A model generated the notes under the pieces. The model was given only the letters and a program-made list of their open reading frames with translations. It ran no database searches and was not told the DNA's origin. This document shows, one piece after another, positions 35,714 through 63,667 of a stretch of DNA of 64,000 nt. Source of the DNA: Candidatus Harrisonbacteria bacterium. Its GTDB lineage: Bacteria > Patescibacteriota > Minisyncoccia > UBA6257 > 02-FULL-45-10c. The stretch spans positions 33,412 through 97,411 of the forward strand of contig JACPTS010000001.1 in NCBI GenBank assembly GCA_016192685.1, in the 5' to 3' direction. The stretch's first letter is position 1, and each line of letters starts with the position of its first letter. Position numbers and translations under genes: made by a program.

Positions 35714-35754
35714 ATTTCAAAATCCAACTCCCGCTCCACCAAAATAAAAATAAA

Positions 35755-36265: not shown

Positions 36266-36304
<39 letters not shown>

Positions 36305-36701: not shown

Positions 36702-36733
<32 letters not shown>

Positions 36734-38170: not shown

Positions 38171-38459
38171 CTCTCGCACACTCTAGACAAGTCCCCTCTG
38201 TACAAATGTTTCCACTAAATTGAAATCATTGATTTTGTATCAAGTTCAAGGCGCGAGGAGGAAATCGTAGGGTTACCTACCTTTCCGACTCGCAACGCAG
38301 AAATTGATCAAAATCAAGATTCCCGAAGGGTAAGGAAATTTTTGTCAGCTTCTTCGTTAGTCGTCGCTAGTGTATCTAAAGATACACTTCGCTCCTCCTG
38401 CCTTGAATTTAACTCAAAATTTCCTTATCAATTAGTGAAAATATTTGTACAGAGGGGAC
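38171..38459 (-). other. ~290-nt intervening sequence (IVS) in 16S helix region ~E. coli 650, bounded by a perfect 33-bp inverted repeat
   Basis: gtcccctctgtacaaatgtttccactaaattga ... tcaattagtgaaaatatttgtacagaggggac; flanks align to 16S; core homologous to 61408..61678. Confidence 0.7.
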
Positions 38460-38989
38460 AGCAGTTTTTGCTGCAGCCTCGAAGTTGAGCCCCGAGATTT
38501 AACAGCAAACTTGCTGGTCCTCCTACGCACTCTTTACGCCCAATAAATCCGGATAACGCTTGGAGCCCTCGTATTACCGCGGCTGCTGGCACGAGGTTAG
38601 CAGCTCCTTATTCCTCTGGTACTATCAGCCTTGCGGCTTTCTCCCAGAGAAAAGCAGTTTACAATCCTTAGACCTTCATCCTGCACGCGGCGTCGCTCGA
38701 TCAGGCTTTCGCCCATTGTCGAATATTCTCGACTGCTGCCACCCGTAGGTGTACGAGCCGTGTCTCAGTCTCGTCGTTGGGGAACACCCTCTCAGGCCCC
38801 CTACTGGTCATAGCCTTGGTAGGCCATTACCCTACCAACTAGCTGATCAGACCTAGGCCGCTCCCAAAGCCCCTTGCGGGTTTTAATCCGAATGTTGCAT
38901 CGGATGCTATCGGGCATTACCCCGCCTTTCGGCGAGCTGTGCCCGTCTTTAGGGTACGTACCAAGGTGTTACTAACTCGTTCGCCGCTC

Positions 38990-39075
38990 GCCTTCGGCTC
39001 GGACAAATAACTTTTAACAAATAACTAATAACGAAATTGTTAATAGTTATAAGTTATTTAGTTATTAGTCCGAGC
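38990..39075 (-). other. expanded V1 helix of 16S (~60-nt AT-rich palindromic extension)
   Basis: ggactaataactaaataacttataactattaacaatttcgttattagttatttgttaaaagttatttgtccgag between conserved GCAAGTCG and GGCGAACG. Confidence 0.5.
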
Positions 39076-39448
39076 TAAAAGCTCGCACGACTTGCATGCC
39101 TTATCCACGCCGCCAGCGTTCATCCTGGACCAGGATCAAATCCTCTAAATAAAAGTCAGTTGCACAGAACCCTCGAACGAGTTCCTAGCAACTAACCTTC
39201 GTATTGGGACAACTAGAAAATTTTCTTTTTTACTTGTAATTTTACTAAATTACTAAATTTTATATATTTAGTTATCAAGCCAGCATGTATTATCTTTAAT
39301 TAGTAAAAATAATACACCTATCTTGCGGTTCGTGGTTTTCACCGAGTCAAACTCGGCTTCACACCAGCGGCAAGATAGATGCATTTAGAACCTATCTAGT
39401 AATCTATGAAATTTTTAAATAAAAACTTATTTCATTAAGGTAGTTCTA

Positions 39449-39484: not shown

Positions 39485-39522
39485 CCCCATACCCCTTATT
39501 CGTACGAATAAGGGGTATGGGG
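39485..39522. promoter_or_regulatory. 38-bp perfect palindrome ccccataccccttattcgtacgaataaggggtatgggg just upstream of the rRNA promoter
   Basis: perfect dyad; paralogue with compensatory changes at 19338..19369. Confidence 0.4.
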
Positions 39523-42824: not shown

Positions 42825-42905
42825 TCTCTGCCTACCGGCATCGGAGTCCGCTTGCCGCTGGAGCGAGCGAACCGCGGTTCTCATAGAAATATACTGGCTG
42901 GTTTT
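42825..42905. repeat. partial copy of repeat family 1 (3' stem module ggagtccgcttgccgctggagcgagcg)
   Basis: matches the 63600..63650 module. Confidence 0.45.
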
Positions 42906-45139: not shown

Positions 45140-46525
45140 TTATTTTTTATTTCTATCAGAAATATCTTTTATAATTTTTCGTAAAGATTTTTCCGCGGCT
45201 TCCAATTCTTTCATAATTTTCCTCAACAAATCCCTTTCTTCATCAACCAGCATGCGGTTAAGAGTTAATTCTTCCAATCTTTCAAATTGCTTTTCAAAAG
45301 TTTCGCTTAAATCATCGAAAATTTTATCCGCCTGCTTTTCCGCTTCTAAAACTTTATGCTGGATTTTTCTCCTTGTTTGATTCCAAATTATAAACGCAAA
45401 AAGGATTAAAATTACAGCCATCGCTATTGCGATTCTTAAGTAATTCCAGTGCCGGGATTTTATAATCAAAAGATCGCTTACTTCAATTGAATTACCAGCC
45501 CTATCAAAAACTTTTACGATAATTTGATGCTCTCCGGTCGGCTGCGGCGGCAAGACATAAAAACCTTTATTCTGTTTTAATTTTTGGGCATTAAAGAAAT
45601 TTCCTTCGTCTATTTTTATTTCATAGCGGTCAACTCCGCAAAGAGCGTCCGTAGTTGAAAAACCGATGCGCGGCTCTGATTCAAAAGTTTCCCGGCCATC
45701 CGGAAATTGAATTATAAAAGATTCCGGCGGTACCGTATCAATTTGAACGCGATAATGCCCCGCCTTCCCCCAGCCTCGCGCGTTTCTAAACTGAACGTGA
45801 AAATACCATACGCCGTCCTGGACGCCGCCAAGCTCTCTTTCAAAAATCGGAGGTTCATAAACTAAAATCGGCTGGGTATCTGAAAACTGGTCATAAAGCA
45901 CCTTTACCGCAGTCACGTCTTTGGGAAGTTCCCAGATGAATTTCGGATTATTATTTGAATACCAAGAATTTTGATCCGGATGAGTTAAGGAAGTAATGGC
46001 TGGCTTGATTGGCAAAGCCAGCGGCGCCAGTGCCGGTTTTGACGGTAAAATAGGCGGAATAAATCTCCAATTGGCGCCTAAAGCGCCGCCAAAAATATTG
46101 GTTCCCAAACCATCGGCAAGAAGAATTCTCGCGCTGCTGAAATTTAAAGCTCCCTCCCCTGCCTGTTTTACGTGAAAAGTAACAGATAAAACTTCGCCTT
46201 GCGAGCCGGAAAAAGGAGTGGTGTTGCCGCCGGCAAAAGTAATAAGGCCCTTTGAATTATCAAAAGCCGGCTCTACCGGCCAAAGCGAAAATATGGAACC
46301 GGACCTCGCAATGGAAGCCACCCGCAAATAGGATGCCGGAAAATTAATGGTCGCTTCCGCCGCGTTAATGGCATTGCCTCCGGAATGGACATAAACCGAA
46401 GTTTTAATAGTTTGTCCCACGCTGAATTCGCCGCTAGCCGGCGATATGCTATAGGTGCCGCCGGCGGCCAAAACCATTTCAAAAATTAAAAGGAAGGATG
46501 TTGCTGAAAAAATCAATTTTTTCAT
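45140..46525 (-). CDS. cohesin-like domain surface protein with TM anchor and cytoplasmic coiled-coil tail
   Basis: signal peptide; cohesin-like INAAEATINFPASYLRVASI...GEVLSVTFHVKQAGEGALNF; TM VILILFAFII; 461 aa. Confidence 0.45.
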   Translation of the reverse strand: MKKLIFSATSFLLIFEMVLAAGGTYSISPASGEFSVGQTIKTSVYVHSGGNAINAAEATINFPASYLRVASIARSGSIFSLWPVEPAFDNSKGLITFAGGNTTPFSGSQGEVLSVTFHVKQAGEGALNFSSARILLADGLGTNIFGGALGANWRFIPPILPSKPALAPLALPIKPAITSLTHPDQNSWYSNNNPKFIWELPKDVTAVKVLYDQFSDTQPILVYEPPIFERELGGVQDGVWYFHVQFRNARGWGKAGHYRVQIDTVPPESFIIQFPDGRETFESEPRIGFSTTDALCGVDRYEIKIDEGNFFNAQKLKQNKGFYVLPPQPTGEHQIIVKVFDRAGNSIEVSDLLIIKSRHWNYLRIAIAMAVILILFAFIIWNQTRRKIQHKVLEAEKQADKIFDDLSETFEKQFERLEELTLNRMLVDEERDLLRKIMKELEAAEKSLRKIIKDISDRNKK

Positions 46526-47391
46526 AATTTGCGGACAATAAAAATTGCTGCCAAAATAACTAAGAAAATAATCAAGTAAAATAAGTATGGGCTTTCAATT
46601 TGCACCGCGGCTTCTCCAATGGTTTCATTACCGGCCTTATCTATTGCTTTTACTTGTATTAAAATATCGCCTTTTTGATTTTCCAATACATAAGGACTGG
46701 TAACAATTTTCCAGCCCCCCGCCTTCCCATCTGCTATTTCCCGCAATTCATAACGCTCCAACCCCGATTCGCGGTCTTCAGTTAAAAAAGACACGAAATA
46801 TTTTCCGTCAAAAGCCAACGGGGTCCGGCTGATAATGGGTGAAAAGGCGTCCGGCGGGGCAACATCTTTCGGAAGCGCGAAAATTTTTGGTTTTGTTCCA
46901 ACTGGCGCCAAATTTATTTTAAAAGTAAGAGCTTTCAAACTAAGCTCCGCTTCGTCTCCAGACCCATTATTTAAAAGCATTTTTGAAGTGGAAAGAAATT
47001 TTAAAGTCGCTTCGCCGATATTTTTTGCCCTAAAATATATTTTAGTAATAAGGCCGTTTTGACCCTGAAATCCTGGATTAGGCAGTCCTCCTGCCATAGA
47101 AATAGTTCCCAAGACATTGGAAAATGACGGTTCTTTCGGCCACAAACTTAAAATTGAACCGACTTTATCAAATGTGACAACCTCCAATAAATTAGCTGGG
47201 AAATTAAGGTCCGCTTGAACCGCGTTAATTGCTTCGCCGAAACTTCTAATTCGGATTTCCGCTGGGAAAACATCATTTTGGTAAATTGGCTGGCTGGGCA
47301 ACTGAATATAAAGCTCCGCGGCTTGAACTAAATTTAAACCAAAAGCGGCAGAGAAAAACATAATTAAAAATTGTATTTTCATATTTTTCAT
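46522..47391 (-). CDS. cohesin-like domain surface protein with C-terminal TM anchor
   Basis: signal peptide; INAVQADLNFPANLLEVVTF...GLITKIYFRAKNIGEATLKF; C-terminal TM. Confidence 0.45.
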   Translation of the reverse strand: MKNMKIQFLIMFFSAAFGLNLVQAAELYIQLPSQPIYQNDVFPAEIRIRSFGEAINAVQADLNFPANLLEVVTFDKVGSILSLWPKEPSFSNVLGTISMAGGLPNPGFQGQNGLITKIYFRAKNIGEATLKFLSTSKMLLNNGSGDEAELSLKALTFKINLAPVGTKPKIFALPKDVAPPDAFSPIISRTPLAFDGKYFVSFLTEDRESGLERYELREIADGKAGGWKIVTSPYVLENQKGDILIQVKAIDKAGNETIGEAAVQIESPYLFYLIIFLVILAAIFIVRKL

Positions 47392-47395
47392 GATT

Positions 47396-48241
47396 TTAAC
47401 CGGTCCACCAATAAAGCATTATGCTGAAATCTATTAAATCCACCTTTCCGTCTTTATTAAAATCTGTCGCCGGATTTTTTGGAATCCCCCAGTTAAATAA
47501 TAAAATACTAAAATCTGTAAGGTCCACGCGACCATCCGAATTTAAATTACCAACTCTTCTTGAAATTGCTGGCGATGGCACTATCGGAAAAAGCCCGCCA
47601 TCTCCTCCACCACCACCTCCTCCGCCAGATGGCGCTGGAGCCGGCGCGGGAGCAGGGGCCGGCGCGGTCGGAGCTGGTTTTTTCGCGGAAACCTCTATCG
47701 GCGCAATGATTGCCACCATAGCATCATCTTCGTCTAAAGTTGCGTTAGAACTATTTTTTGTAGTAACGCGAATTTTGTAAGACCCCGCGGAAGCTGAATT
47801 GGTAATTTGCTTATCGCCGGTTACTCCAAATACAGCGTTAGTTCCGATTCGCACAATAATGGAACTGCCTCCGGAAATCGCATCACTGTCGTTTAAGACA
47901 TAGGTCAACGAACCGCTGGTTCCGGAAACCGCCGTAAATCCAATGGCACTGCCGGCGCCTGACCCGGCGGACGCGGCAAGAGTTTTTTGAGAATTATTAA
48001 TGAGCAAATCAACATCAGTAAAATCAAGGCCAGGAGGAATATTGAAAGCTCCGGATTGCGGAGTAATAATTATTTTTCCGGAAACCGGAACAACTGTTAT
48101 GGTTGTAAATTTAATAGTGTGATTGGCGGCGATTCCCGGTCCGGAATCAAACAATGTATCACTGACTAAATTAAGAGTAGCGGCTTTTACCGCGGCAGTT
48201 AAAAATAATAACGCTATTATTAAAATTTTTTTAAGATTCAT
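47396..48241 (-). CDS. secreted protein with (PA)n/Gly linker and C-terminal dockerin-like duplicated Ca-binding repeat
   Basis: NSDGRVDLTDFSILLFNW and NKDGKVDLIDFSIMLYWW (DxDGxVDxxDxxxL x2); PAPTAPAPAPAPAPAPSGGGGGGGG linker; signal peptide. Confidence 0.55.
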   Translation of the reverse strand: MNLKKILIIALLFLTAAVKAATLNLVSDTLFDSGPGIAANHTIKFTTITVVPVSGKIIITPQSGAFNIPPGLDFTDVDLLINNSQKTLAASAGSGAGSAIGFTAVSGTSGSLTYVLNDSDAISGGSSIIVRIGTNAVFGVTGDKQITNSASAGSYKIRVTTKNSSNATLDEDDAMVAIIAPIEVSAKKPAPTAPAPAPAPAPAPSGGGGGGGGDGGLFPIVPSPAISRRVGNLNSDGRVDLTDFSILLFNWGIPKNPATDFNKDGKVDLIDFSIMLYWWTG

Positions 48242-48488
48242 CCTTTATTCTATGCCGATAATCCAAATAAAAGTTTAAAAGAACCAGCGCCAATATAATT
48301 CCCCCGCCGATAAAAATTTGCTTATCCATTTCCGCTTCTTTTTTAAGAAGCTTAGTTTCTTTTTCCTGCAGTTGCTTATTAAGCGTATTGATTGGGTTTG
48401 GGGGTATATCAGTATTTACCCCCACAGCGCTTGCCTTAGAAAATAAAATTAATAAACCGGCTAATATCAGCAATAAATAATTTTTCAT
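48231..48488 (-). CDS. small bitopic membrane protein (85 aa)
   Basis: signal peptide + C-terminal TM. Confidence 0.3.
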   Translation of the reverse strand: MKNYLLLILAGLLILFSKASAVGVNTDIPPNPINTLNKQLQEKETKLLKKEAEMDKQIFIGGGIILALVLLNFYLDYRHRIKDES

Positions 48489-49582
48489 GCAAAAAGTAAA
48501 AATAACAGCGTCAATAAAAGCAAAATCAGCATAAGAAGCGTTATTAAAGCGAACGCCGGCAATAAAGCGGATGATTTTTTATCGCGATTTACCGGAATGC
48601 TGCCGGTATTTTTAATAATTTGCCGAACTCTTTTTCTCACTTGAAAACGGATAAATAAGATTACGCCGATAATCATCGCCAGCAGGGCTCCAAAAACCGG
48701 CAAAATAATATTTAAAGGAACAATCCAAAAAGTTGTCTCATCAGAAAGGCTCTGCCGGCCTTCTTCGCCGTAAGTCAAGCTAAGAATAGCTTTATAATTC
48801 CCAAACAGCAATTTATCGCTTTCCCAAAGAATTCTAAATTCCCGGATAGTTTTAGGGAATACTGAAGCGGATTCTTCATTAACATTTAATGCCGCTTCTT
48901 GCCGGCCAAGAGGGTCAATGATTTCCAAAATACCGTGCGGCCTGACTAAAACATTCCCAAGATTTTCTATTTTGGCGGAAAAATTCACTTTCGGCCGGAT
49001 ATAAATTAATTTATCCAGAGAAAAACCTCTTAACTGCGCTTCTTCAAAAATTTCTCCGGAAACTCTAAAATTAATAATGGTGCCAACTTGATAACCAATG
49101 CCGATGCCGGTTGTTTCCGGACGCTTAGGCGCGAGAGCCACAAAAATTCCTCCGAAATGGCCTCCGGGAGGAGCATTGGGCGGAACAACAATCGCAAAAG
49201 GAATTTCTTTGGTCTGGCCGGCGCCAAGATTTATAGATTTATCAGTTATTTTAATCCAGGAACTTATTTCAAAACCAGTCGGTTCGCCTTCTACGGCAAA
49301 TATCGGGGATCCTTGCTCGGAAAGGGACTTGATATCACGGGTAATTACGTAAAAAGTTTTATTCTCCGAACTTAAATTAGTTACTTTAATTTTAGAATTA
49401 AAAGTTTGGCCCGGGTCAATTCTCTGTTCAATTATTGCCGGCTGGATTTTTACGCCCGAAACCTCTTGCGCCTTTACAAATGAAAATTCTGGCAGGTGAA
49501 AACCTGCCAGAATTAACGCCGCCAGAAAGAAAATCTTAGAAGGTCGGCGTAGCAATATAATTAAGCGCTTGAGTATAATCAT
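48485..49582 (-). CDS. cell-surface protein with signal peptide and C-terminal TM anchor (DUF916-like architecture)
   Basis: 365 aa; WIVPLNIILPVFGALLAMIIGVILFI anchor followed by basic tail. Confidence 0.4.
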   Translation of the reverse strand: MIILKRLIILLRRPSKIFFLAALILAGFHLPEFSFVKAQEVSGVKIQPAIIEQRIDPGQTFNSKIKVTNLSSENKTFYVITRDIKSLSEQGSPIFAVEGEPTGFEISSWIKITDKSINLGAGQTKEIPFAIVVPPNAPPGGHFGGIFVALAPKRPETTGIGIGYQVGTIINFRVSGEIFEEAQLRGFSLDKLIYIRPKVNFSAKIENLGNVLVRPHGILEIIDPLGRQEAALNVNEESASVFPKTIREFRILWESDKLLFGNYKAILSLTYGEEGRQSLSDETTFWIVPLNIILPVFGALLAMIIGVILFIRFQVRKRVRQIIKNTGSIPVNRDKKSSALLPAFALITLLMLILLLLTLLFLLFA

Positions 49583-50705
49583 CGGCTGCTTCTTGTAAGG
49601 TGGAAATTTCTATCTTAAAGCCAATCTTAGTTCTGCCTTTATCAATAGTAGTGCCGTTAGCCGGTCCGGTATGAGCGAATATCTCAATCGGGGCGGACTG
49701 GCTGCCGATTCCGCTGTATAAAGCGGTGCCGAAAGTATCCCCGGCGGTTAAAGTGCTGTCCTCGCTGGTAATACCTTGCCAGCCCCAAGTGTTCTCATCA
49801 TCAATATCAGCTGTCGGCGAAGACCAGGCAACCGCGGTGGAAGTGGCGGTTTGCTGGAAATTATCAATATCCGAACCGTCACCGCTGGTCAAATTCTGGT
49901 CTTTCCAGATAGTTACGGAGAAGCCGTTTTTGGCATTAGTGCTGACGGTCAAATCTTGACGCGCCCGTTTAGCAGTATCAATAGTTAATTCTCCCCAGGG
50001 AATAGCGGTAGCGGTGGTAGTGACATCAGTTGTTCCACCTTCGCCGTTAGCTGTCGTTGTTGCCGAAGCAACACCAGCCACAGTAAAGGTGAAGTTGGTT
50101 GCGACCGTGGCAGTTACCGTAACATCAGGAACAATGGCAACTCGGGTACTCGCGGAATCAGCAGCCGGGGCAGTAATGCTGATAACATAAGAACCGGAAC
50201 TAGGAGGATTTACCAATTGGCTGTCGCCGGTCCCGCCAATTGTGGCATTAGTGCCGATTTTTACCGTAATCGGGGCGCTGGCCGCGACTGCCGCCGTGCC
50301 ATTGCAATGGGTAAAAGTGAAAACATTGCTAGTAGAAGTGGAGGTAATTTCAAAACCGGCGGTAGCGCCTGTTCCCGGACAAGCTCCAGCGGCAAAAAGA
50401 TTGAGGTCAGTGGTGGAAGATGCTATATCATAATCAGTCGCGTCAGTTGTGGAAAAAACCGGGGTGCTGGTCCCCTGAAATTGGTCAGCAAAATCAATTA
50501 CTATCGTTGAGCTCGCGGTAATCGGACTTTTAAGAGTAAATTTAATCGTGTGATTGGCTTTGACTGCCGGCTCAGAATCGCTTAAAGTATCAGAAACTGA
50601 CGTTAATTTGGCCGCCAAAGCGTAATTAACCAATAAAACTAAAGTTAAAGTTACTAAGATAAACAGCCAGTTTTTAGAATATCCCGATACCTTAAACTTA
50701 AACAT
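49536..50705 (-). CDS. secreted Thr/Ser-rich surface protein with WxL-like C-terminal tail
   Basis: N-terminal VSDTLSDSEPAVKANHTIKFT shared with 47396..48241; C-terminal ...DDYTQALNYIATPTF similar to the 53288..54610 C-terminus. Confidence 0.4.
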   Translation of the reverse strand: MFKFKVSGYSKNWLFILVTLTLVLLVNYALAAKLTSVSDTLSDSEPAVKANHTIKFTLKSPITASSTIVIDFADQFQGTSTPVFSTTDATDYDIASSTTDLNLFAAGACPGTGATAGFEITSTSTSNVFTFTHCNGTAAVAASAPITVKIGTNATIGGTGDSQLVNPPSSGSYVISITAPAADSASTRVAIVPDVTVTATVATNFTFTVAGVASATTTANGEGGTTDVTTTATAIPWGELTIDTAKRARQDLTVSTNAKNGFSVTIWKDQNLTSGDGSDIDNFQQTATSTAVAWSSPTADIDDENTWGWQGITSEDSTLTAGDTFGTALYSGIGSQSAPIEIFAHTGPANGTTIDKGRTKIGFKIEISTLQEAADDYTQALNYIATPTF

Positions 50706-50764
50706 ACTTTTATTATAGCAGGTTAAGTTTTAGTCCTAAGAGACGGCTGTGGATAACTTTTTTA

Positions 50765-52390
50765 TTAAGGAATTGCTCCCAACGATTTTAATGCCAATTT
50801 AAAACCATCAAAACTCGCGCTTATTACCAAATATTCATTAAAGAGACCATAATTAAAAGCTGAACCGGGACGGGAACCAATGGCATATCGAGTTTTTATG
50901 CCCAAAACCGATCCGTCTTTAAATTCGCCGAGGGTTTCCGGCGAAATGTAAAATCTTGCGGCATAATTTTCTAAAATCGGCGCGATAACCGGAGCCAAAA
51001 CCTGGGAATCTTTGATTTTCGCGACATAACCGGGCCAAGAGCCGTTGGCGTCATAATATCGGAAAGCGGTAAAATCATCATTAAAAGTTTGGCTCAAAAA
51101 ATCTTTATCAAAAACCGGCAAAAACCGCCGGAATAATTCCGGTAAAGACATTTGCCCGCCGTCTTCTTTTAAAATTTCCACTTCATTAAAACGATTGTCA
51201 GTTTCCGACGCGGAAAGGAAATAAGTTTGGTGGATTATTGAAGCGGTTTGTTTTAGCGCCAATTCCGGAGCGCCAACAAATAATGATTTGCGCGATTCTA
51301 CCGCGTATCTTACTCCTGCGCCGGCGCTGACCGACAATAAGCCAATTACCATTATTATCATTAATGGATTCCAAGCGGAAATCACGGGAACTGGCTGATA
51401 ATTTTTCACCGGAGGCAAATCGGAAACAGGAAATTCTCCTTCCATAACTTTATGGACATAAGCCCTAATGGTTTTTCCGGCAAAAAATAAGAAAAGCGGC
51501 AATAAAAATAAAAGGCTTATAATTCCAAAAATAAAATTAATCGGCATTATCCAAAAATAAGTTTCCTTAACGATATTTTGAGCCGGATTCCCAAAAGTTA
51601 AAACTGCCGCCGCTTTGTATCTTCCCATTCCGCTTCCGGATTTTTCCCTCTCCCAATTAAAAATAAATTCACGGCTTTTACCCGGTAAAACCGCTAACGC
51701 TTCAGCCGATAAAATAATATCCCCTTTTTCTTCGCCTTGATAATTAAAAATTTTAATTTTACCCGATGGATTTAAATTTACATTGCCGGTATTTTCAAAA
51801 TTAAGCGAAAATTTGACTTTCAACTCACGGTAAAAATTATTTTCCGCGATAAAAGATTTAATGGCGCCGCCAACCCGTTTTTCTCCGCTGACCCGCACCG
51901 ATAAAATTGAAGAAATAAATCCGGCGGATTTTAATTCTTGAGTTTTTCCGCTTAACGGCTGGGTGCCGATAAGAATCGCGGCCGCGTGGCTACCCGGCGG
52001 AGCGTCAGCCGGCAATTGCAAAGAAAATGGCAGAAATACGCTTTGCTTCCCCAATATCGTTACTGCGTTATCCTTGAATTTTACCCATTTAGCCAGCGAA
52101 TGTCCGTAAATTTCCGAATCCTCATTTAAAATCGGAACCGATTTATCGCTTAAATTAACGGCTGAAACATAAACCGTCAGGTCAGTTGAATTATTGTTGA
52201 AGATTTTTAACCCGCTGTTCCAATTTTCTCCGGGACTAAGATTAATTTCCAATAAAGAAGGCGTAACCGTAAAAGCAATCGATTCGCTTCCAAGAGTTAA
52301 AGAGACGGAAAAAATTCCAAGCAAAGCTGCGAAAATAACTATTTCATTTATTTTAAAAATAAATAGATTGTTAAAATTGTCATGGCGCAT
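50765..52390 (-). CDS. surface/membrane protein (541 aa) with extracellular domain, central TM and C-terminal domain
   Basis: signal peptide; WIMPINFIFGIISLLFLLPLFLFFAG TM. Confidence 0.4.
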   Translation of the reverse strand: MRHDNFNNLFIFKINEIVIFAALLGIFSVSLTLGSESIAFTVTPSLLEINLSPGENWNSGLKIFNNNSTDLTVYVSAVNLSDKSVPILNEDSEIYGHSLAKWVKFKDNAVTILGKQSVFLPFSLQLPADAPPGSHAAAILIGTQPLSGKTQELKSAGFISSILSVRVSGEKRVGGAIKSFIAENNFYRELKVKFSLNFENTGNVNLNPSGKIKIFNYQGEEKGDIILSAEALAVLPGKSREFIFNWEREKSGSGMGRYKAAAVLTFGNPAQNIVKETYFWIMPINFIFGIISLLFLLPLFLFFAGKTIRAYVHKVMEGEFPVSDLPPVKNYQPVPVISAWNPLMIIMVIGLLSVSAGAGVRYAVESRKSLFVGAPELALKQTASIIHQTYFLSASETDNRFNEVEILKEDGGQMSLPELFRRFLPVFDKDFLSQTFNDDFTAFRYYDANGSWPGYVAKIKDSQVLAPVIAPILENYAARFYISPETLGEFKDGSVLGIKTRYAIGSRPGSAFNYGLFNEYLVISASFDGFKLALKSLGAIP

Positions 52391-53355
52391 ATAATTAAAA
52401 TTAATCCCGCCAAGATCGGCCGGGAAATTACCCAGAAAAAAGCCGTATCTTGAACCACTTGTCCGTTTTCGGATTTCAAAGATAAAATCGCTTTATATCT
52501 TCCGAAATCTTTATTAAATTCCGACAAATTTGCCAGAGCGCCAGCCAAGTCTGACTTGGCGCCGCCGAAATTCCTTGATTCCCGATGGGGAGAAACCGCC
52601 AACTGACCGCTGAATTTTTCCGCGTTTATTTCGCTAATCGGCACCAATCCCGCTTCTTCGCCTCTCCGATTAAAAATCATCAGCTCTCCCTTGAGTTTTA
52701 TCGGCTTAACTCCGCTATTTTCCAATTCATAAGTAAAAGAAACCGGAAATCCCAATGAAAAAGTTTTATCGGCCGCGAACTTTTTTAAACGCAAAAATTC
52801 ATCATTCTTTTCCGCGATTTCCACATTGACCAAAACCTCCGGCCCGGCCATTCTTTTTTCCGCTTCTATTCTATCCGATCCTTCATAAAAAGCAATGCTG
52901 GCGTGATAAATTCCCGGCACTGCTCTTGGCCCCGCTTTAATCAAAAAATCAATGCTTTTTTTCTCTCCCGGCAGAAGCTGAATCACTCCCCTGTTAATTT
53001 CAATCCAATTTGCTAGTGATTTGGTGAGGTCCGCCTGCGCCGGGCCGTAAAATTCCTGCTCTCCTTCTTTTGTGTCTAAATTATGCACGGTGGCATAAAT
53101 ATTTGTTTTATAATTTGCATCGTTAGTTAAAATTATGGTTTCCTCAAAAATTTCTCTTGGATTTCCTTTCTCGTCTATAATTGCCGGTTCAATTTTTAAA
53201 TAGCCGGCATGAATATTGGCAAAAACTAAAAACAATCCGGCAACAATAAGAACCAATCTTAAATTAATTTTTAATGGATTAAACATTTTAAAAAACCGGA
53301 ACAATAATATACCCGACACTGCTTTGATAATCCTCCGGCGGCTGTTCCGGCCCAA
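52348..53355 (-). CDS. cell-surface protein with C-terminal TM anchor (paralogous architecture to 48485..49582)
   Basis: 335 aa; WVISRPILAGLILIICAMTILTIYLFLK. Confidence 0.4.
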   Translation of the reverse strand: MGRNSRRRIIKAVSGILLFRFFKMFNPLKINLRLVLIVAGLFLVFANIHAGYLKIEPAIIDEKGNPREIFEETIILTNDANYKTNIYATVHNLDTKEGEQEFYGPAQADLTKSLANWIEINRGVIQLLPGEKKSIDFLIKAGPRAVPGIYHASIAFYEGSDRIEAEKRMAGPEVLVNVEIAEKNDEFLRLKKFAADKTFSLGFPVSFTYELENSGVKPIKLKGELMIFNRRGEEAGLVPISEINAEKFSGQLAVSPHRESRNFGGAKSDLAGALANLSEFNKDFGRYKAILSLKSENGQVVQDTAFFWVISRPILAGLILIICAMTILTIYLFLK

Positions 53356-54610
53356 TCTGGGCTTTAAAAATTATATCCACTGATTCATTGGCTACCGGGG
53401 TAGGGCTAAAAGCCGTTTCTTTTGGGGAATTTTCCAGCTTGGCATAAGTATCATTGGCGGCAAAACGGCCGGCATTTCCAGAAAGGGTGTCGTCTCCGGA
53501 ATGATAACCATAACATCCCATATCCAATACCGGACAAGCAGCCGACCAATTTAAAGGAGTTTCATTAGTGCTATTAATCGGCGCGATTTCCGAACCACCG
53601 TCTCCTAATAATCCTTGTCTTTGAAATATAAAAATCCGGTAGCCATCCGTCCCATTAGTGGTAACGGTTAATCTTTGCGCCACTTCCGTCTCTAATCCTG
53701 GATTTAATGAACTAAAAGAAATATTTAACGGCGTGGTTGCCGCGTCGGTAATTATGCCTTCAGTCGCAGTTCCGGAAGGCAAACCGCTGATTGAAAAAGT
53801 TAGTTTTGCCGCTTCTGTTGCCAGACTGGGATAAGATGCGCCGGGCTTAAGTACAACCGGTTTATTATTTCCAAGATCAAAAACCCGGAAAAAATACACG
53901 GCATTGGCCCTTGCTCCGGCATGTTTAACGGTAAATTCATATTCCGAAGCCGCATTCCTGATATATATAAAGGTAGAAGTACTGGACCCAAATTCATTAT
54001 GAGTGCCGCAGCCATTTCCTATTCCGCTAAGACAAGAATCGGCATCAGATAAAGTTTTATTTTGAATTAAAGCATTATCTGATCCGGCGCCGTCCGCGTA
54101 ACACCAAAGCGAATTATCCGCGCAATCCGACGTTTCCACCACATCCTGGACATCGCGGGAAAAATCCGAATACTCGGAAAACTGAAGTCGGAATTTAGTA
54201 TTTTTATTTCCTATGCCGCCTAATTCCTTAATAGTTAAACGGAGTTTTATAATATTTTGATTTACGATATTAATAGGCGCGGCATTTTCATTCGCGAGCG
54301 CGACACCGGGAGTTTCATTGGTTTCATCGTCATACCAGCGCCAGTTTTGGCTGGCCGGAGTAAAATCGTTGAAATATAAAAATCCGGATAATACTACGAA
54401 ATTTGTGCTGGTTGATTCTCCGAGAGCGTTTTGGCCGCCGACAATTCCCTGCTGAAAACTGCTGGAGGTGGCAACTCCGCCAAATACGTCAATAACCGGA
54501 TCCCGAAAAATAAAATTCGGGCTGGTAAAATCCGCGGCAAAAACTAAAGCCGCGGAAAATAAAATCGCCGGTAAAATTAGATTAATTAGAATTTTGAGTC
54601 GTAGTTGCAT
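53288..54610 (-). CDS. secreted surface protein with WxL-like C-terminal tail
   Basis: signal peptide; C-terminal ...DYQSSVGYIIVPVF. Confidence 0.4.
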   Translation of the reverse strand: MQLRLKILINLILPAILFSAALVFAADFTSPNFIFRDPVIDVFGGVATSSSFQQGIVGGQNALGESTSTNFVVLSGFLYFNDFTPASQNWRWYDDETNETPGVALANENAAPINIVNQNIIKLRLTIKELGGIGNKNTKFRLQFSEYSDFSRDVQDVVETSDCADNSLWCYADGAGSDNALIQNKTLSDADSCLSGIGNGCGTHNEFGSSTSTFIYIRNAASEYEFTVKHAGARANAVYFFRVFDLGNNKPVVLKPGASYPSLATEAAKLTFSISGLPSGTATEGIITDAATTPLNISFSSLNPGLETEVAQRLTVTTNGTDGYRIFIFQRQGLLGDGGSEIAPINSTNETPLNWSAACPVLDMGCYGYHSGDDTLSGNAGRFAANDTYAKLENSPKETAFSPTPVANESVDIIFKAQIGPEQPPEDYQSSVGYIIVPVF

Positions 54611-56969
54611 TTTTATTAATTACAAAATTCGTTGTTGTTGAATTACTGACTGAAATATTTTCGCAGGTTCCCAAAACTTTTTTCCATTCTCCATTTTCCA
54701 GCCAAGTGCAATAAAATTCATTGGTAGCTTGGTCACGCAATTGAATTTTTTCTGAAATATCCAAATTCTGGATTCGCGCTGATTTGATAATCGCTTTTTC
54801 CGCGATAAATTCCTGAAACTTAGCAATTCCATTTTCAATAAATAAACCGAGTGAATTTAATGTCTGTCTTATTATGTCGCCTAGACCGCTGTCTGGCACT
54901 TCCGCGGTTTGAATTTCGCTAATAGGATTATCTTCGCTTGTCGTTGCCATTTCTCCGCTTGTTCCCTCCGGCGGGTCGTCAATCCAAACCTTAATAGATT
55001 CTACGTCCAGATTTTTTACCGCATCGGCGGTTGTTATTAAAGCGTTACCGACTGAAAATCCTAAATCGGCAGTAGGAATATTTAAACTGATTGTAGCAAC
55101 TAAAACGCCGCCAATAAAAAAGCGGGTGTTAACGCTGCCATTTATTTCAACGCGAAGTTCCTGAAAATTCGCGGTAGAAATCGCAACACCGGTATCAACA
55201 ACTGAACCAACTTCTGAACCGCCGGCGCGGTTTACCGCTATCCAATTTGACGAAGCAGGTGTGGCGCGAAAATATACTCCGTTGGTATCGGCCGCTATAT
55301 CGCCGTTTAACGCCCTGACAGCAAACCCCGCTTCAATTCGGTGATTGGTCAAAGTTAGCGGCATTACCCTTGCTTCCATTACCGGATTATTATCCCTGTT
55401 CATCGGCAACGGGCCGCCAGACCCCAAAATCGCCCCCTCCCCAACCGCTAAACTTCCGGCAGTGCTTGCCCGGAGCCGAATCGCGGAACTACCGGCAACT
55501 TTTGCTATAACTGCTCCGTCAGCGTCTTCGTCAAAAACTAATCCGCAAATATCGGCTGTATCAGCGACTATAACGGCTAATGGAGCGCAGGTTGCCAGCC
55601 ATTCTCTTTGATAACCCCGCCAGGAACTGTTAATCCGGCCATAAACATAAAGCTGGTCCTCCTTAGTTGGCCCGCCGACTGTTACTCTGGAAAAATCAAG
55701 ATTGCCGATTCCGCTTTGCGTAATTGAAAAAAGAGTGGCGGTTGAAGAACCAACCACAAAAGCCGGCCCGTTTATTCCGTCAGGATTCACCGAAAGAAGC
55801 CCCAGAGGGGAAGTGGTGCCAATGCCCACGTTGCCATTATTAAAAATAATCTTATCATCTTGGAACTCGGCAGCTGTTACTTCCCCGGATGGACCGGCAG
55901 TGCCGGTGTTAGCCCGAATTTGAACAACGCCATTTGATGTCCTGTTGGCCAATGCTACAATGTCACTTCCCGGGAAGATAAGGCCGAACCTTCTCTTGCT
56001 GGCTGAATCAAGATATTGTATTCCCTCGCTTGCGCCGCCAGCAGTGCCAATAAAGGATATGATAGACCCTGCCCCGCCAATACCGACTTTCGTCCCCGGA
56101 TCCGCCGTCCCGATGCCGATGTCGCCGCTTCCCTGCTGAACCACAAACTGCGACGCTCCAACCGTAAACCCCTGGCCGCTGGCGATAGTAGAAGTTCCGG
56201 AAGCGCCGATTAAAGATAAATTACCGGTAGCCGTGATATCCGCCACCGAAGTGATATTTCCCAAAAACAAAGCATTTCCATGCACGGAAAGCAATTGAGA
56301 AGGAGAAGTGGTGCCAATACCGACAAATCCGCTTAAAGGATTTAAAAGCAGATTTCCGCTAAGAGCATTTCCCTGAATCGTTAACGAATTTGAGGAAGTG
56401 GCGTTAATCTGCGGCGTCAATGCTCCTAAAAACAAATTTCCGCCGGTTAAAACCGGAATCTGATTTCCGCTTGCCGACGGCGCGGCATGAAAACCATCCA
56501 AAGTATCGGAATTAATTGAATAGCCGGACGAAACAACGCGCTGCCGTGGAGATAAATTTTCAAAAACTTCCGCCCCGTCGCCCGGCGCGCAAGTCACGCC
56601 GACTTTTTGGGCAACTTCCGTATTTACGTATATTTCATCCTGCGATTGGAAATCAAAATCTAAAATATCTCCTCCGCTTAAAGTATCGCCTATTCCGGCA
56701 TCAAAAACGCCATTTTTAACTAAAACTGTCATTGTTGATGGAGCGCCAGCCGGCCAAAGTTTATTATCCGGAGCCCCGACTGCCGCGTCATCATAAAAAG
56801 AAAATTTAAAACAAAATTCTGTTCCGGATTCGCCCAGCAAAATCCCAGAAGCGTCCAGCAATCTTCCTTGGTAATTTAAAATTCTGGGGACGCCGGCTGC
56901 GGCAAAAATTTTAGTACCGGCAATTAATCCCAGCGCCACCATTAAAATTTTTAGAAACGTCTTCTTCAT
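54582..56969 (-). CDS. large secreted fibre-like protein (795 aa) with repeated G(N/D)(V/I)GIGT(T/A)xP motifs
   Basis: signal peptide; GFVGIGTTSPSQLL, GDIGIGTADPGTKV, GNVGIGTTSPLGLL; same motif as in paralogues 27714..28316 / 28489..28989. Confidence 0.5.
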   Translation of the reverse strand: MKKTFLKILMVALGLIAGTKIFAAAGVPRILNYQGRLLDASGILLGESGTEFCFKFSFYDDAAVGAPDNKLWPAGAPSTMTVLVKNGVFDAGIGDTLSGGDILDFDFQSQDEIYVNTEVAQKVGVTCAPGDGAEVFENLSPRQRVVSSGYSINSDTLDGFHAAPSASGNQIPVLTGGNLFLGALTPQINATSSNSLTIQGNALSGNLLLNPLSGFVGIGTTSPSQLLSVHGNALFLGNITSVADITATGNLSLIGASGTSTIASGQGFTVGASQFVVQQGSGDIGIGTADPGTKVGIGGAGSIISFIGTAGGASEGIQYLDSASKRRFGLIFPGSDIVALANRTSNGVVQIRANTGTAGPSGEVTAAEFQDDKIIFNNGNVGIGTTSPLGLLSVNPDGINGPAFVVGSSTATLFSITQSGIGNLDFSRVTVGGPTKEDQLYVYGRINSSWRGYQREWLATCAPLAVIVADTADICGLVFDEDADGAVIAKVAGSSAIRLRASTAGSLAVGEGAILGSGGPLPMNRDNNPVMEARVMPLTLTNHRIEAGFAVRALNGDIAADTNGVYFRATPASSNWIAVNRAGGSEVGSVVDTGVAISTANFQELRVEINGSVNTRFFIGGVLVATISLNIPTADLGFSVGNALITTADAVKNLDVESIKVWIDDPPEGTSGEMATTSEDNPISEIQTAEVPDSGLGDIIRQTLNSLGLFIENGIAKFQEFIAEKAIIKSARIQNLDISEKIQLRDQATNEFYCTWLENGEWKKVLGTCENISVSNSTTTNFVINKNATTTQNSN

Positions 56970-57087
56970 AAAAATTGAACATAAAAAAAATCCCCCCGAA
57001 TCCGGTAGGCCGTAGAACTACCTAAATCTCCTTATTATATTTAATATAACGAAAAATTCATTGGAATAAAATGATTGTAAAAAAAAT

Positions 57088-57300
57088 CTAAAATTTATAA
57101 TTTTCAACTAATATCTCGGGCACTTTTTCTCCGGATTTTAAAATTATTTTTATTAAAAGAAGTTTTTTGCAATGCTGGCAATACATTACAAAAGAAATGC
57201 CCGAACCTTCTTGACTGGGCTCCAAACTTTTTATAATAACTCCTCTGCAATTCGGGCAATGAACTATCGCCCCATCGCCTTTGTGAACATATTTATCCAT
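57088..57300 (-). CDS. zinc-ribbon small protein (70 aa)
   Basis: CPNC ... CQHC. Confidence 0.35.
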   Translation of the reverse strand: MDKYVHKGDGAIVHCPNCRGVIIKSLEPSQEGSGISFVMYCQHCKKLLLIKIILKSGEKVPEILVENYKF

Positions 57301-57331
57301 ACAATTTTATCCATACAATTTAATATACCAT

Positions 57332-58591
57332 TTAAATTTCAAAATATCCCTGAAGCAAATACTCTTTAGAAAATTTTTCCAGTTCTTCGCGATTGAAATA
57401 TTCCGTAAAAATTTTGTTCCAAAGCGCTTCCTGATGGTGATAAAGATATTTAATAAGCTCTTTTTGCTTCACCAAGCTCATAACCGTATCCACTAAATCA
57501 AAACTAACCAATATGTCGTTCCCGACCTCATCCTTAAAATAATCGCCTACCCAGCCTAAATTATGCCAAAACTCCAATTCCTTATTTAATTGGGGATATA
57601 AGCCGCTTAATTTAATTAAATCTTCTTCGGCTTTTAACCAATGCAGGGCTTCCGGATTGATCCGGGGGACAAAAAGCCGCCAATCATTTTCATCATCTTT
57701 GGCAAGGTAACGCTGGACCACCAAAAAAAGCGCCCGTTCATTTTCCGGCAGATGCCGCTCCATCACATCGCCGCGCAAAAGAGAGATTAAATTTTCCGAA
57801 AAAGTTTCCGGCACTTCCGCGATTTTCTTAAAAATATCGGAATAAAACGGCACCTCGTGCAAGTAATGCGCCACCAAACTCATCATCCGCAAAAGTTCTC
57901 CGGATATTCCAAGCGAAATCGGAATAACAAAGACCACTCCCAATTCCTTAAGGTGGCTGATATTATGCCACTTTTTCATCACGAATTTCTTCGTTATCTC
58001 ATTCCATTTTTCACTCAAAGCATGGACTACAATCTTCCTTTTTTCAAAATCATCCGGCGTCAAATCTTCATATTGCTTAAAAAACACGTCATTTAACCAC
58101 TCATTTCCCTCAAGAAAACGGAGAGCGCTATAAACTTCCAAAAGATTTTCTTTCGCAAGCATCTCATCAATAGAGCTATATCCTAAAAATTCCATCACTT
58201 TTTTCGGCGGTTCTTTTTTTAATAATTGCTTCGCGACTTCCTGTTTTAAAAAGAAACCGTGATTTATTTCCGCAACTTTTTTTATCGTTTCCAGAATATT
58301 ACGGCAGTCCTTTTGGCTATTGCAGACTCTGCCGCCAAGGGCATTAAAAATTAAATTATCATCGGCTTCTATCTTAGAAATTAAGGCGTCATATACCTCC
58401 TTAGCGGTGGCAGCGCGGGAAATTCCGAGAGTCAACAAAACTTCTTTAACCTTAGTTTCGTTTTCTTCGGCTATTTTTTCAAAAATGCCGCTTTTTCCGG
58501 TTACATGATTTAATCGGTCTTCAATTTTATAAAGAGCGTTTTTGTCTGCCCTCAATATTTTTGCCAATTTATCGGTTGCCAGTCTTTCCAT
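57332..58591 (-). CDS. hypothetical protein (419 aa)
   Basis: long clean ORF, no motif recognised. Confidence 0.45.
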   Translation of the reverse strand: MERLATDKLAKILRADKNALYKIEDRLNHVTGKSGIFEKIAEENETKVKEVLLTLGISRAATAKEVYDALISKIEADDNLIFNALGGRVCNSQKDCRNILETIKKVAEINHGFFLKQEVAKQLLKKEPPKKVMEFLGYSSIDEMLAKENLLEVYSALRFLEGNEWLNDVFFKQYEDLTPDDFEKRKIVVHALSEKWNEITKKFVMKKWHNISHLKELGVVFVIPISLGISGELLRMMSLVAHYLHEVPFYSDIFKKIAEVPETFSENLISLLRGDVMERHLPENERALFLVVQRYLAKDDENDWRLFVPRINPEALHWLKAEEDLIKLSGLYPQLNKELEFWHNLGWVGDYFKDEVGNDILVSFDLVDTVMSLVKQKELIKYLYHHQEALWNKIFTEYFNREELEKFSKEYLLQGYFEI

Positions 58592-61407: not shown

Positions 61408-61678
61408 GGAATCTATTTTAATAATAATTCCCTAACGCGATACTAGCCAATTTTGGCTAGGACAAGGCGCAAGGAGGAAATCGCAGCTTAAGCTGCCTTT
61501 CCGACGAGCAACGCAGTCATAGACAAAATTGGCTGTATCCCTTTGGGTTGTCGCTAAAATGAATTATCTCTGTGTCGTTCCTCCTCGAGGTAGCTATGGC
61601 TACGATCTCGTCGTCACTCCTTGAGCTAATTCATTTTAGCTGACAACGCGTTGGTGAATTTTTATTAAAATAGATTCC
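61408..61678. repeat. ~270-bp TIR-bounded structured element, paralogue of the 16S IVS (38171..38459)
   Basis: terminal inverted repeats ggaatctattttaataa / ttattaaaatagattcc; core caaggcgcaaggaggaaatcgcag...cctttccgacgagcaacgcag matches the IVS core with compensatory hairpin changes. Confidence 0.6.
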
Positions 61679-61929: not shown

Positions 61930-62006
61930 AAAAAAATTATAAAATCTTAATTTTTACGACCTTTTTCGTCAACAAAATAACTAATTATTATTATAACAAA
62001 TCTGCT

Positions 62007-62870
62007 TTATTGATGCTCGCTTTTAATCTGCCCGCCAAGCGTCCGCAATTCCACCAGCGCCTTTTTTGCCTCATCTGGTGTTGGCGGTTTGCCATGCCAT
62101 TCAAAACGATTTTCCATAAAACTGACTCCTTTCCCGGGAACTGTATGCGCGATAATCACGGTTGGTTTTTCATAAATGGCTTTTGCTTCATTCACTGCGG
62201 AAATAAAAGCGGCAATGTCATGACCGCCAACTTCAATCACGTGCCAATTAAAAGATTCATATTTTTCCCGCAATGGCTCAAGCGGCATTACTTCTTCGGT
62301 AAAACCGTCAATCTGGATATTATTCCGGTCCATAATTACGGTAAGATTATTTAATTTGGATTTTTGCTTGCCGGCAAACATAATCGCTTCCCAAGTATTA
62401 CCCTCTTCATGTTCACCGTCAGAAGTAAGGCAATACACGCGGGATTTTTTCTTATCCAGCCGAGCGGCGAGCGCCATACCGATAGCTTGCGAAATCCCGG
62501 AGCCGAGCGGCCCGGAAGTAGTTTCCAAACCTGGTAGAGAATTTCGGTGGGGGTGCCCCTGCAGCCGAGAATTTATTTTCCGAAGCGTAAAAAGTTCTTC
62601 CATCGGAAAATATCCGGCATTGGCAAGCGCCGCGTAAAGCACCGGGCAAATATGGCCGTTGGAAACCACTACTCTGTCCCTATCCGGCCAGCCGGGGTTT
62701 TTCGGGTCGTGATTTAAAATATGAAAGTAAAGCGCGGTAAAAATATCCGCCATCCCAAGCGGTCCGGCTGAATGCCCGGATTTTGCCTCAACCAGCATCT
62801 CAATAATATCTTGTCTAATCTTGTTAGACATCTCCTCTAAAAACTGCAATTTTTTCTCGTGAAGCTCCAT
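62007..62870 (-). CDS. transketolase, N-terminal (TPP-binding) subunit
   Basis: GHSAGPLGMADIFTALYF, TSDGEHEEGNTWEA. Confidence 0.85.
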   Translation of the reverse strand: MELHEKKLQFLEEMSNKIRQDIIEMLVEAKSGHSAGPLGMADIFTALYFHILNHDPKNPGWPDRDRVVVSNGHICPVLYAALANAGYFPMEELFTLRKINSRLQGHPHRNSLPGLETTSGPLGSGISQAIGMALAARLDKKKSRVYCLTSDGEHEEGNTWEAIMFAGKQKSKLNNLTVIMDRNNIQIDGFTEEVMPLEPLREKYESFNWHVIEVGGHDIAAFISAVNEAKAIYEKPTVIIAHTVPGKGVSFMENRFEWHGKPPTPDEAKKALVELRTLGGQIKSEHQ

Positions 62871-63516: not shown

Positions 63517-63667
63517 AAAGCGGGTAACTATCTTTCGTACGGCAACTACGGAGCTCCGAAAAGATTGGTTTTTCGCGAAGCGAAAATTTTCGGAGCGAGG
63601 CGTAGGAGCCGCTTGCCGCTGGAGCAAGCGGACTCCGGTGCCGATAGGAAGATGGTTACCCGCTTTT
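63517..63667 (+). repeat. structured repeat family 1, copy 3 (complete, with ~21-bp terminal inverted repeats aaagcgggtaac(t/c)atctt)
   Basis: cgtacggcaactacggagctccgaaaag...tttcgcgaagcgaaaattttcggagcgaggcgtag... Confidence 0.65.

Follow-up and report, generated by a model that had tools for sequence, protein, structure and literature searches.

A fold-defined, strand-specific interspersed repeat of Parcubacteria and its copies beside and within a 16S rRNA gene

Small repeats between bacterial genes include the REP families, which carry GTAG tags and G.T pairs and lie downstream of genes, some of them within long palindromes of which no empty example is seen; their E. coli partner protein, RAYT, has been established to recognise single-stranded DNA (PMC3733652, and work cited there). 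Pneumococcal and other small structured repeats cluster and insert into one another, SPRITE being terminator-like, and their transcripts can be cut by RNase III or RNase E (PMC10969869). Here we compare with these systems an element of about 145 nt from a Candidatus Harrisonbacteria genome, found in a 64,000-nt stretch of GenBank assembly GCA_016192685.1 (contig JACPTS010000001.1, positions 33,412 to 97,411 of the forward strand; hereafter the window, to whose first letter all unprefixed positions refer), the reference copy occupying 63517-63667. The element is defined by its fold, specific to one strand, multi-copy, non-coding, nested, recombining, and gained or lost between relatives. With a probability of roughly one half, we regard the family as a non-autonomous, structure-defined interspersed repeat of Parcubacteria and the Candidate Phyla Radiation (CPR), closest to REP/REPIN and the pneumococcal BOX/RUP/SPRITE repeats. 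Literature searches found no paper describing it.

Fold, covariation and folding strand

The reference copy, which we term c3, divides into the following parts, all given for the + strand:

63517-63667, + strand: full copy c3, 153.5 bits with the covariance model
63517-63536 with 63647-63666: closing stem P1
63537-63539 (GTA) with 63644-63646 (ATA): internal loop
63540-63544 (CGGCA) with 63639-63643 (TGCCG): stem P2
63546-63550 (CTACG) with 63601-63605 (CGTAG): stem P3, with a GA/GAGG loop
63553-63596: hairpin 1, tip GCGAAGC
63606-63635: hairpin 2, loop CGCTGGA, with a bulged A

Across the family the unit is Y-shaped, with a long closing stem P1 leading through a 3x3 internal loop to the 5-bp stem P2 and a three-way junction that bears two hairpins. 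In three full copies of the window, c1, c2 and c3, P1 has 15-20 bp and P2 is CGGCA/TGCCG, replaced by GAGCA/TGCTC in c1. Their hairpin 1 comes after the short stem CTACG/CGTAG and the GA/GAGG loop and carries, besides a small hairpin at its tip, the one-sided loop (A/U)GCUUGG; hairpin 2 comprises 12 bp with a bulged A and the loop CGCWGGA. The two hairpins are unrelated and stand in direct order, and do not form an inverted pair of one hairpin. Folding energies of the three copies c1, c2 and c3 lie at z = -7 to -9.2 relative to dinucleotide shuffles.

The initial annotation of this DNA, made from the letters alone, had read the terminal stems as being under structural selection, and covariation across the family bears this out while adding strand specificity. 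In 14 copies aligned without the model, 36 of the 47 predicted pairs keep pairing via changes on both sides. In 67 distinct copies 97.4% of the pair cells hold standard pairs, compared with 72% in the shuffled control and 32-46% when the structures are slid by 1-3 columns; double changes are seen in 43 of 48 pairs, and none of 500 shuffles reaches the observed values. Because the alignment of the 67 copies was fitted to the model these last figures lean toward structure, a weakness of which the 14-copy figure is free. Among the non-Watson-Crick cells of the 67 copies G.U outnumbers A.C by 152 to 33, and since this bias persists in every direction of the neighbouring gene (antisense 42:6, sense 14:3, convergent 24:5), the + strand is the folding strand independently of host transcription. 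The + strand also folds better than the - strand, by 9-12 kcal/mol as RNA and by 3-6 kcal/mol as DNA.

In many copies the helix continues past P1 through a symmetric 5'-RCGAG / CGAGY-3' motif, which we read as tandem G.A pairs between C-G and G-C. At the outermost pair of this motif CGAGTA copies have A opposite T and CGAGCG copies have G opposite C, a match that may in part reflect two subfamilies rather than compensation. The tip of hairpin 1 is a GNA triloop closed by C-G in about three-quarters of the 67 copies (counted by eye; an automated tally mis-folded some), with GNRA and UNCG tetraloops nearly absent; the GCGAAGC found in c3 is a classic and very stable DNA mini-hairpin. Directly 5' of hairpin 2 stands GAGGCGTAG, conserved at 90% or more in the 67-copy consensus, and its GTAG tag is kept in the diverged copy c4 despite covariation of P3, becoming GTAA in L010b and L043 (L numbers denote loci outside the window). 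Two further ideas were considered and set aside: pairing between the internal loop of hairpin 1 (GCUUGG) and the loop of hairpin 2 (CGCWGGA) shows no complementarity or covariation by eye, and a pMV158-type nick site (TACTACG) in the junction is weakened because P3 covaries in c4.

The comparison with Rfam proposed in the initial annotation matched no family. The whole window at gathering thresholds gives tRNA and 16S matches only; in c3 with 120 nt on either side, at E<=10 and on both strands, the core is overlapped by nothing but two chance-level partial matches; loci L001-L010 give tRNAs only, and the L007 composite, scanned at permissive E-values, gives no match. The proposed ribozyme-like character thus meets with no Rfam ribozyme match at E<=10 on either strand.

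Copies, genomic setting and mobility

A covariance-model search, also suggested at the outset, recovers a wider family. The exact pattern GCAACTACGGAG-N30-55-GAGGCGTAG, scanned over one genome per species (GTDB), has 11 matches outside the window, making 14 copies with the window's three; these genome matches are all from Patescibacteria, namely Candidatus Harrisonbacteria, Candidatus Paceibacter and one further metagenome-assembled genome (MAG), and viral contigs contain no match to the pattern. In metagenomes, mostly from groundwater, the same pattern finds 50 loci, 48 of them true copies and 2 of them GC-rich coding false positives. The covariance model built from 14 copies returns 73 matches, of which 67 are distinct, in 405 kb of loci, including copies missed by the exact pattern, with as many as three of them within 7-8 kb at some loci. 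As far as sampled, the family is restricted to Parcubacteria.

Within the window the same model reveals the fourth full copy, c4, and the family is present as:

20076-20221, + strand: c1, full copy of a variant subtype (P2 GAGCA/TGCTC, loop AGCTAGA), 140.1 bits
35780-35926, + strand: c4, diverged fourth full copy, 51 bits, E=3e-11
37800-37947, + strand: c2, full copy of the main subtype, ends ACGAG...GCGAGT, 142.9 bits
37757-37976, + strand: shell c1.5, closing stem and loops (..TATCATAGAG / CTCATAGACAA..) left from a c1-type copy, the core filled by c2
37670-38047, + strand: shell c0, two-part long closing stem with GTGAG...CGAACG ends, TCGTGCGGCAAC (5') and CGATGCCGGTAGA (3')
19991-20028, + strand: 5' fragment of an older copy (stem arm and GTACGGCAACTACGGAGCT)
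about 37725-37739: 5' fragment
42843-42901, + strand: 3' fragment (hairpin 2 to 3' stem arm), shell type as in L006, L023 and L047
42817-42844, - strand: 3'-end piece CCGATGCCGGTAGGCAGAGAGGCAGAGC of an oppositely oriented copy, in a head-on junction with the fragment 42843-42901

The three full copies with a common core, and the 3' fragment, that had first been noticed are therefore real, with limits refined as listed, but the count was short, as c4, the 5' fragments, the nested shells and an outer stem of c1 had been overlooked. c1, c2 and c3 all lie on the + strand with a mean column identity of 80% in the alignment; the density in the window is about 1 copy per 16 kb, and truncated and nested copies are common. 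In c4 both P2 and P3 have covaried to new sequences that still pair, while hairpin 2 is degenerate; the copy is enclosed by a hairpin shell (35753-35948) just downstream of the 16S 3' end, in which a 12-nt direct repeat, ATTTCGTAGAAA, occupies 35762-35773 and 35927-35938. c2, rightly placed by the initial annotation in an rRNA insertion (~36860-38066, within the 16S gene on the - strand), is the innermost of three nested layers there and is antisense to the rRNA: it lies within c1.5, which lies within c0, and both hairpins of c0 have been replaced by c1.5 and c2. Intact relatives of c1.5 occur at L030 (623-776) and L001 (4968-5110).

Around c1 an extra 13-bp outer stem (20059-20071 / 20229-20241) overlaps the last codons and stop region of yqeY, and its 5' arm is the reverse complement of the last yqeY codons on the 3' side. 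In a weaker case at L010 (~4765-4945) the 5' arm reverse-complements the ribosome-binding-site region of a downstream aminotransferase gene. Such outer stem arms may have grown by copying of the flank, or by selection.

Filled and empty sites are seen by comparison with L015, which at about 80% identity is syntenic with the window at ~61-64 kb. L015 lacks a copy at the c3 site, where a 13-nt terminator hairpin stands instead, and the site of L015's own copy is empty in the window (61941-62026). The cores of the two copies differ at only 4 of about 108 nt, all in two compensating pairs, and so are far more alike than the surrounding orthologous genes. The 3' region of yqeY exists in three states: 1) an intact older copy in L052 and L031, at the site orthologous to the 5' fragment 19991-20028; 2) that older copy truncated, plus c1, in the window and L059; and 3) a c2-type copy within a c1-type shell in L005, L040, L043 and L045. 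Further composites occur in L005, L022/L023/L047 and L043. The outer shells of composites keep only stem and loop (RTAGAG ... CTCATAGA), which places the inner unit at the apex of an older hairpin. Hairpin 1 and hairpin 2 exist as discrete variants, and for six pairs of clusters each of the four possible combinations is present, which implies recombination or template switching between copies. Short-read contigs that carry the window's rpe and yqeY proteins, retrieved by exact-protein look-up, stop at or inside the repeat. Given the presence/absence polymorphism, nesting, fragments and module reshuffling, the family is a dispersed mobile repeat, and the choice originally posed between a structured RNA and a mobile element falls away.

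All copies are intergenic or in rRNA insertions, and their neighbours are unrelated housekeeping genes. In 33 of 43 cases the 3'-side gene runs on the opposite strand, and the 5' flank is A-rich, with A at position -1 in 92%; read in antisense, therefore, the copy at many loci comes after a stop codon and has a U-rich tract behind it. Within 70 nt of the copies, terminator-like hairpins lie upstream on the same strand in 13 instances and downstream on the same strand in none, and promoters of the form TTGAC(A/G/T)-15-19-TAnnnT lie just downstream in sense in 6 instances and in none in the other three positions. In co-directional spacers with visible signals the copies stand between a terminator and the next promoter. 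The copies thus lie in spacers between transcription units or in 3' trailers. In three organisms (c4 in the window, L017 and L051) a copy lies just beyond the 16S 3' end.

Signals for a discrete transcript, as the initial annotation envisaged, did not emerge. Upstream of 24 anchored copies neither TANNNT nor hexamers that agree with TATAAT in 5 of 6 positions show a positional peak, and a scan limited to sigma70-like promoters finds no site at c1 or c3. At least five T within 8 nt follow the + strand helix in only 4 of 61 copies; for the antisense strand, at least five A within 8 nt occur in the 5' flank of 18 of 61. A consensus terminator scanner calls only canonical terminators adjoining copies.

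Main-subtype copies have recognisably homologous outer ~20 bp (GYGAGCTnTRCCTRTnTGTC and its near-complement) with the fixed RCGAG/CGAGY, whereas the outer stems of the subtypes c1, c3, L007, L010 and L060 are unrelated. The claim that ends are copy-specific holds only in part, the junction-proximal half of the stem being semi-conserved (yTATnyTTC) and many copies having homologous stems ending RCGAG...CGAGY; the argument drawn from differing ends was based on three copies of different subtypes and is not supported, given how many copies elsewhere end in conserved sequence. A candidate origin of the closing stems as purely target-derived terminator halves fits c3-like copies, with their A-run/T-run flanks, and was rejected in view of the main-subtype stems being homologous between loci.

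The conclusion that this is not a MITE (a transposable element of the miniature inverted-repeat kind) with terminal inverted repeats and target-site duplications has held. No target-site duplication is seen at the two filled/empty sites or among the 5' and 3' flanks of CGAG-type copies, the sole candidates being loop-centred repeats in nested shells (TCATAGA, and the 12-nt ATTTCGTAGAAA around c4). A relaxed covariance-model search of the window and the 405 kb of loci found no split 5' and 3' ends enclosing a transposase, a Pfam scan of about 60 open reading frames (ORFs) of the window and loci found no transposase domain of the insertion sequence (IS) type, and the only recombinase in the window is the large serine recombinase of a tRNA-Asn island. 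This recombinase was also all that emerged from the part of the scan in which ~30 additional window ORFs and 10 locus ORFs were checked for transposase or reverse transcriptase domains. Nor is there a reverse transcriptase near any copy examined: every flanking gene examined is a housekeeping gene (rpe, yqeY, L25, RNase III, FtsH and sugar-nucleotide enzymes among the neighbours), leaving the suggested retroelement-like association without a partner.

Favoured and rival explanations

The element is probably recognised as a single-stranded nucleic acid. As the form that is handled we favour single-stranded DNA over RNA, since: 1) there is no evidence of the element's own transcription; 2) the copies lie terminator-to-promoter in co-directional spacers with visible signals; 3) the tips of hairpin 1 are mostly C-GNA-G triloops, GNRA and UNCG being almost absent; and 4) the invariant GCGTAG with the bulged 12-bp hairpin matches the GTAG-tagged REP design (PMC3733652). 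On the interspersed-repeat reading, a unit would be copied or moved via a single-stranded intermediate of the + strand, and an enzyme encoded elsewhere in the genome would recognise the junction, including the invariant GCGTAG before hairpin 2, a REP/RAYT-like (HUH) route on single-stranded DNA being the one we favour. Compact self-folding could allow the insert to be tolerated in terminator-proximal DNA and in rRNA, and the antisense strand with the A-rich 5' flank could act as a terminator or RNase III-type processing stem, so that exaptation of antisense copies in these roles is plausible.

Several observations pull the other way. Neither filled/empty comparison gives base-exact ends. Several copies seem to persist at the same type of locus in different genomes while undergoing compensatory changes, as would be expected of a host function no less than of a selfish element. 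The tolerance of G.U and the tandem G.A pairs are no less at home in RNA than in DNA, making RNA a serious alternative. The mobilising enzyme was not found, the lack of a Y1/HUH match in ~470 kb being a weak negative (tblastn with IS608, IS200 and E. coli RAYT queries gave nothing below E=0.9). The orientation of copies relative to GC skew is unbiased (21:27), unlike that of IS200/IS605-type single-stranded DNA elements, though gene direction confounds GC skew in short contigs. A more far-reaching possibility, which we consider doubtful, is an undescribed type of mobile DNA or RNA, defined by its fold, that inserts preferentially into the apexes of hairpins (terminators, other copies and rRNA helices), creates onion-like stems and builds CPR rRNA insertions, served by a new structure-recognising enzyme, either HUH-like on Y-shaped single-stranded DNA or a reverse transcriptase acting on RNA.

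It is rather unlikely that the copies are small structured RNAs of one family, each expressed on its own and with its 5' and 3' ends paired in the closing stem (a Y RNA-like protein scaffold, for instance), their dispersal and nesting being by-products of duplication and recombination. Such RNAs would account for the strong strand-specific covariation regardless of host gene direction, for the sheared-G.A-type motifs (the terminal CGAG/CGAG, the GUA/GUA loop and the GA/GAGG loop), for the matching outermost R:Y pair, for a helix that ends on a purine like a transcript start, and for the retention of copies in the same composite across genomes. The R:Y match may, however, reflect only the two subfamilies, and small RNAs of this kind sit poorly with the missing positioned promoter, the rarity of T-runs after the + strand helix, the location of copies after a terminator and before a promoter where signals are visible, the density of copies in a genome whose largest contig measures ~0.6 Mb, truncated and nested ones being common, and the near absence of GNRA and UNCG tetraloops. 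We give distinctly less credence to a host cis-element, such as a modular super-terminator, an insulator or an RNA-processing stem, which selection would retain where genes end and in the rRNA precursor, with recombination rather than dedicated transposition as the main means of spread. The prevalence of an opposite 3'-side gene, with the antisense copy after its stop codon, the A-rich flank that supplies a U-tract after the antisense hairpin, the copies just downstream of 16S in three organisms and the long stems that would suit RNase III are all in keeping with it; but the fold is optimised on the strand usually absent from mRNA, as the 42:6 ratio in antisense contexts attests (a G.U of the + strand becomes A.C in the antisense transcript), and this weakens any purely host-functional reading. 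Moreover, canonical terminators often adjoin the copies anyway, termination needs no conserved three-way junction, and orthologous sites are empty in a relative.

An RNA-mediated mobile module, be it a non-autonomous retroelement served by a reverse transcriptase elsewhere or a ribozyme-bearing unit, with template switching reshuffling its modules, appears slightly less credible still. The one-strand fold, the lack of target duplication or terminal-inverted-repeat logic and the mosaic of hairpin modules in all four combinations would follow from it, and CPR genomes do carry reverse transcriptases. Opposed to these stand the absence of any match in Rfam to a ribozyme or an intron (E<=10, both strands), of a reverse transcriptase gene near any copy examined, of a promoter and of an A-tail or other 3' priming signature; in addition, nested c2-type units carry about 15-20 nt conserved upstream of the helix (TAAACAATCTAA), which an RNA copy starting at the helix would lack. 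Least credible of all, and in our view highly improbable, is an ordinary MITE with terminal inverted repeats that the DDE transposase of a related IS would bind in double-stranded form: the homologous outer ~20 bp of the main subtype and the intergenic AT-rich sites, typical for MITEs (PMC10969869), would suit it, but there is no target-site duplication at the filled/empty sites or flanks, the outer stems of other subtypes are unrelated and the interior is the most conserved part, the reverse of what MITEs show, recognition of double-stranded DNA leaves the strand-specific G.U bias unexplained, and no IS with these ends was found in ~470 kb.

The 16S insertions, other window features and known repeats

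The 16S gene (36101-39151, - strand) carries three insertions, of ~73 nt (~38995-39074), ~294 nt (~38186-38497) and ~1.2 kb, and each of them includes, or is made up of, repeats found between protein genes as well; Rfam detects no intron family in them. There is no 23S gene in the window, and the rRNA genes are thus unlinked. The largest insertion is:

~36860-38066 (limits approximate), - strand: ~1.2-kb 16S insertion near model position ~750, a mosaic of interspersed repeats with an orphan ORF

The orphan ORF of 84 aa (37196-37452, - strand) has a GGAGG ribosome-binding site and is preceded by a perfect 42-nt palindrome (37508-37549). It has no Pfam match and only a sub-threshold NCBIfam match, and its sole homologue among 5.8 billion proteins is itself (Harrisonbacteria MAG, HYY86_00400). 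As a partner of the repeat, whether homing endonuclease or transposase, it was rejected, having no domain match and no homologue but itself.

Other repeats accompany the family. The 294-nt insertion is a long imperfect palindrome (38191-38459), and a second repeat family is found within it (38247-38312) and between genes (61463-61528), and elsewhere in CPR at L018 (7451-7611), L056 (600-760) and L022 (2152-2203). A third, 'family X' (...GGAAATTTATCACCCTAGTCGC..CTCCTGGGTATCCCGATAAATTTCC...), lies in the 1.2-kb insertion (36900-37040) and recurs between genes at L043 (372-482), where it adjoins a nested copy of the element described here, and at L021 (2963-3088). 'Family Y' is a shell, consisting of a covarying outer stem with conserved loops (ATCGCCTCCAC... 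and ...CTGAATGATCCCACCGCCAGCCCGAAT) around a copy of the element and having no Rfam match, at L007 (~725-945), L014, L002 (~3370-3600), L010 (~6190-6400) and L024. Two 30-nt perfect palindromes, ATACCCCTWATTCGTACGAATWAGGGGTAT, at 19348-19377 and 39489-39518, have a centre, TTCGTAC, resembling the stem-loop junction of the element, and may be empty stems or an unrelated operator-like site. Five tandem 141-nt repeats of 65-76% identity (25989-26803), in a gene for an NHL-repeat beta-propeller (25619-27445), contain CCGGTGCCGTTAG, whose likeness to the 3' junction of the element is coincidental.

Elsewhere in the window, tRNA-Asn (7909-7981) is abutted by the gene for the large serine recombinase (7942-9603). 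Beyond it come a RadC-Dam methyltransferase fusion (12164-13984) and then an AlwI-like restriction endonuclease (14884-16410), and the region 7909-18611 probably represents an integrated island. On the - strand, none of ten large ORFs in succession (281-795 aa; 45140-58591) has a Pfam match. A tandem duplication of 673-709 nt with 92% identity (28214-29171) covers the paralogous ORFs 27714-28316 and 28489-28989, again with no Pfam match.

Abundant structured repeats were not previously known in the tiny genomes of CPR/Patescibacteria, and the element offers a specific origin, open to testing, for some or more of the 16S rRNA insertions of CPR. Its more than 60 variants with all stems covarying form a natural data set on how a fold-defined repeat is recognised and copied, and the breaking of short-read assemblies at such repeats matters for the reconstruction of CPR genomes.

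Among known systems REP/BIME/REPIN, mobilised by RAYT transposases (Y1, HUH), share with the element high copy number, an extragenic location and the form of an imperfect palindrome, together with placement downstream of genes, between convergent or co-directional ORFs, and G.T pairs in the stems. Their GTAG tag 5' of a 12-13-bp bulged stem-loop has its counterpart in GCGTAG and hairpin 2. However, REP/REPIN is a 20-40-nt hairpin or an inverted pair of hairpins, whereas the element is a 145-nt three-way junction with two unrelated hairpins whose stem sequences vary widely within one genome, and no RAYT gene was found in ~470 kb with the three queries named above. Literature searches turned up no report of a REP family in CPR. 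BOX/RUP/SPRITE, the Correia elements of Neisseria and the enterobacterial ERIC are, like the element, intergenic and stably folding at ~100-200 nt; they have sequence-conserved ends and several have target-site duplications and known IS partners, while the element keeps its junction and fold, shows no such duplication and has a clear single folding strand. The bcr1 repeat of the Bacillus cereus group, about 155 bp long and mobile-like, is likewise reported to have an RNA-type structure kept by compensatory changes; it differs from the present element in its defined TTTAT target duplication and in the evidence for its transcription.

The intervening sequences and other insertions of bacterial rRNA genes are likewise extra helical DNA that must be removed or tolerated, with long stems suited to RNase III, and unusually frequent 16S insertions were reportedly described as a CPR trait by Brown and colleagues in 2015. 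Compared with these, the window insertion is neither an intron (none is found by Rfam) nor a homing-endonuclease cassette (its ORF being an orphan), and is built from repeats that also lie between protein genes, the element within it being antisense to the rRNA. The inverted terminal repeats of parvoviruses and the telomeres of Streptomyces provide a likeness of shape alone, with a stem of ~145 nt capped by two hairpins, sheared-G.A GNA triloops and GAGC-rich sequence, but these cap linear replicons and serve as binding sites for Rep or telomere proteins, whereas the element is an internal chromosomal repeat. It is thus set apart from known repeats, with no target duplication or partner seen, by its three-way junction, by the conservation of its interior rather than its ends, and by its role as a component of an rRNA insertion.

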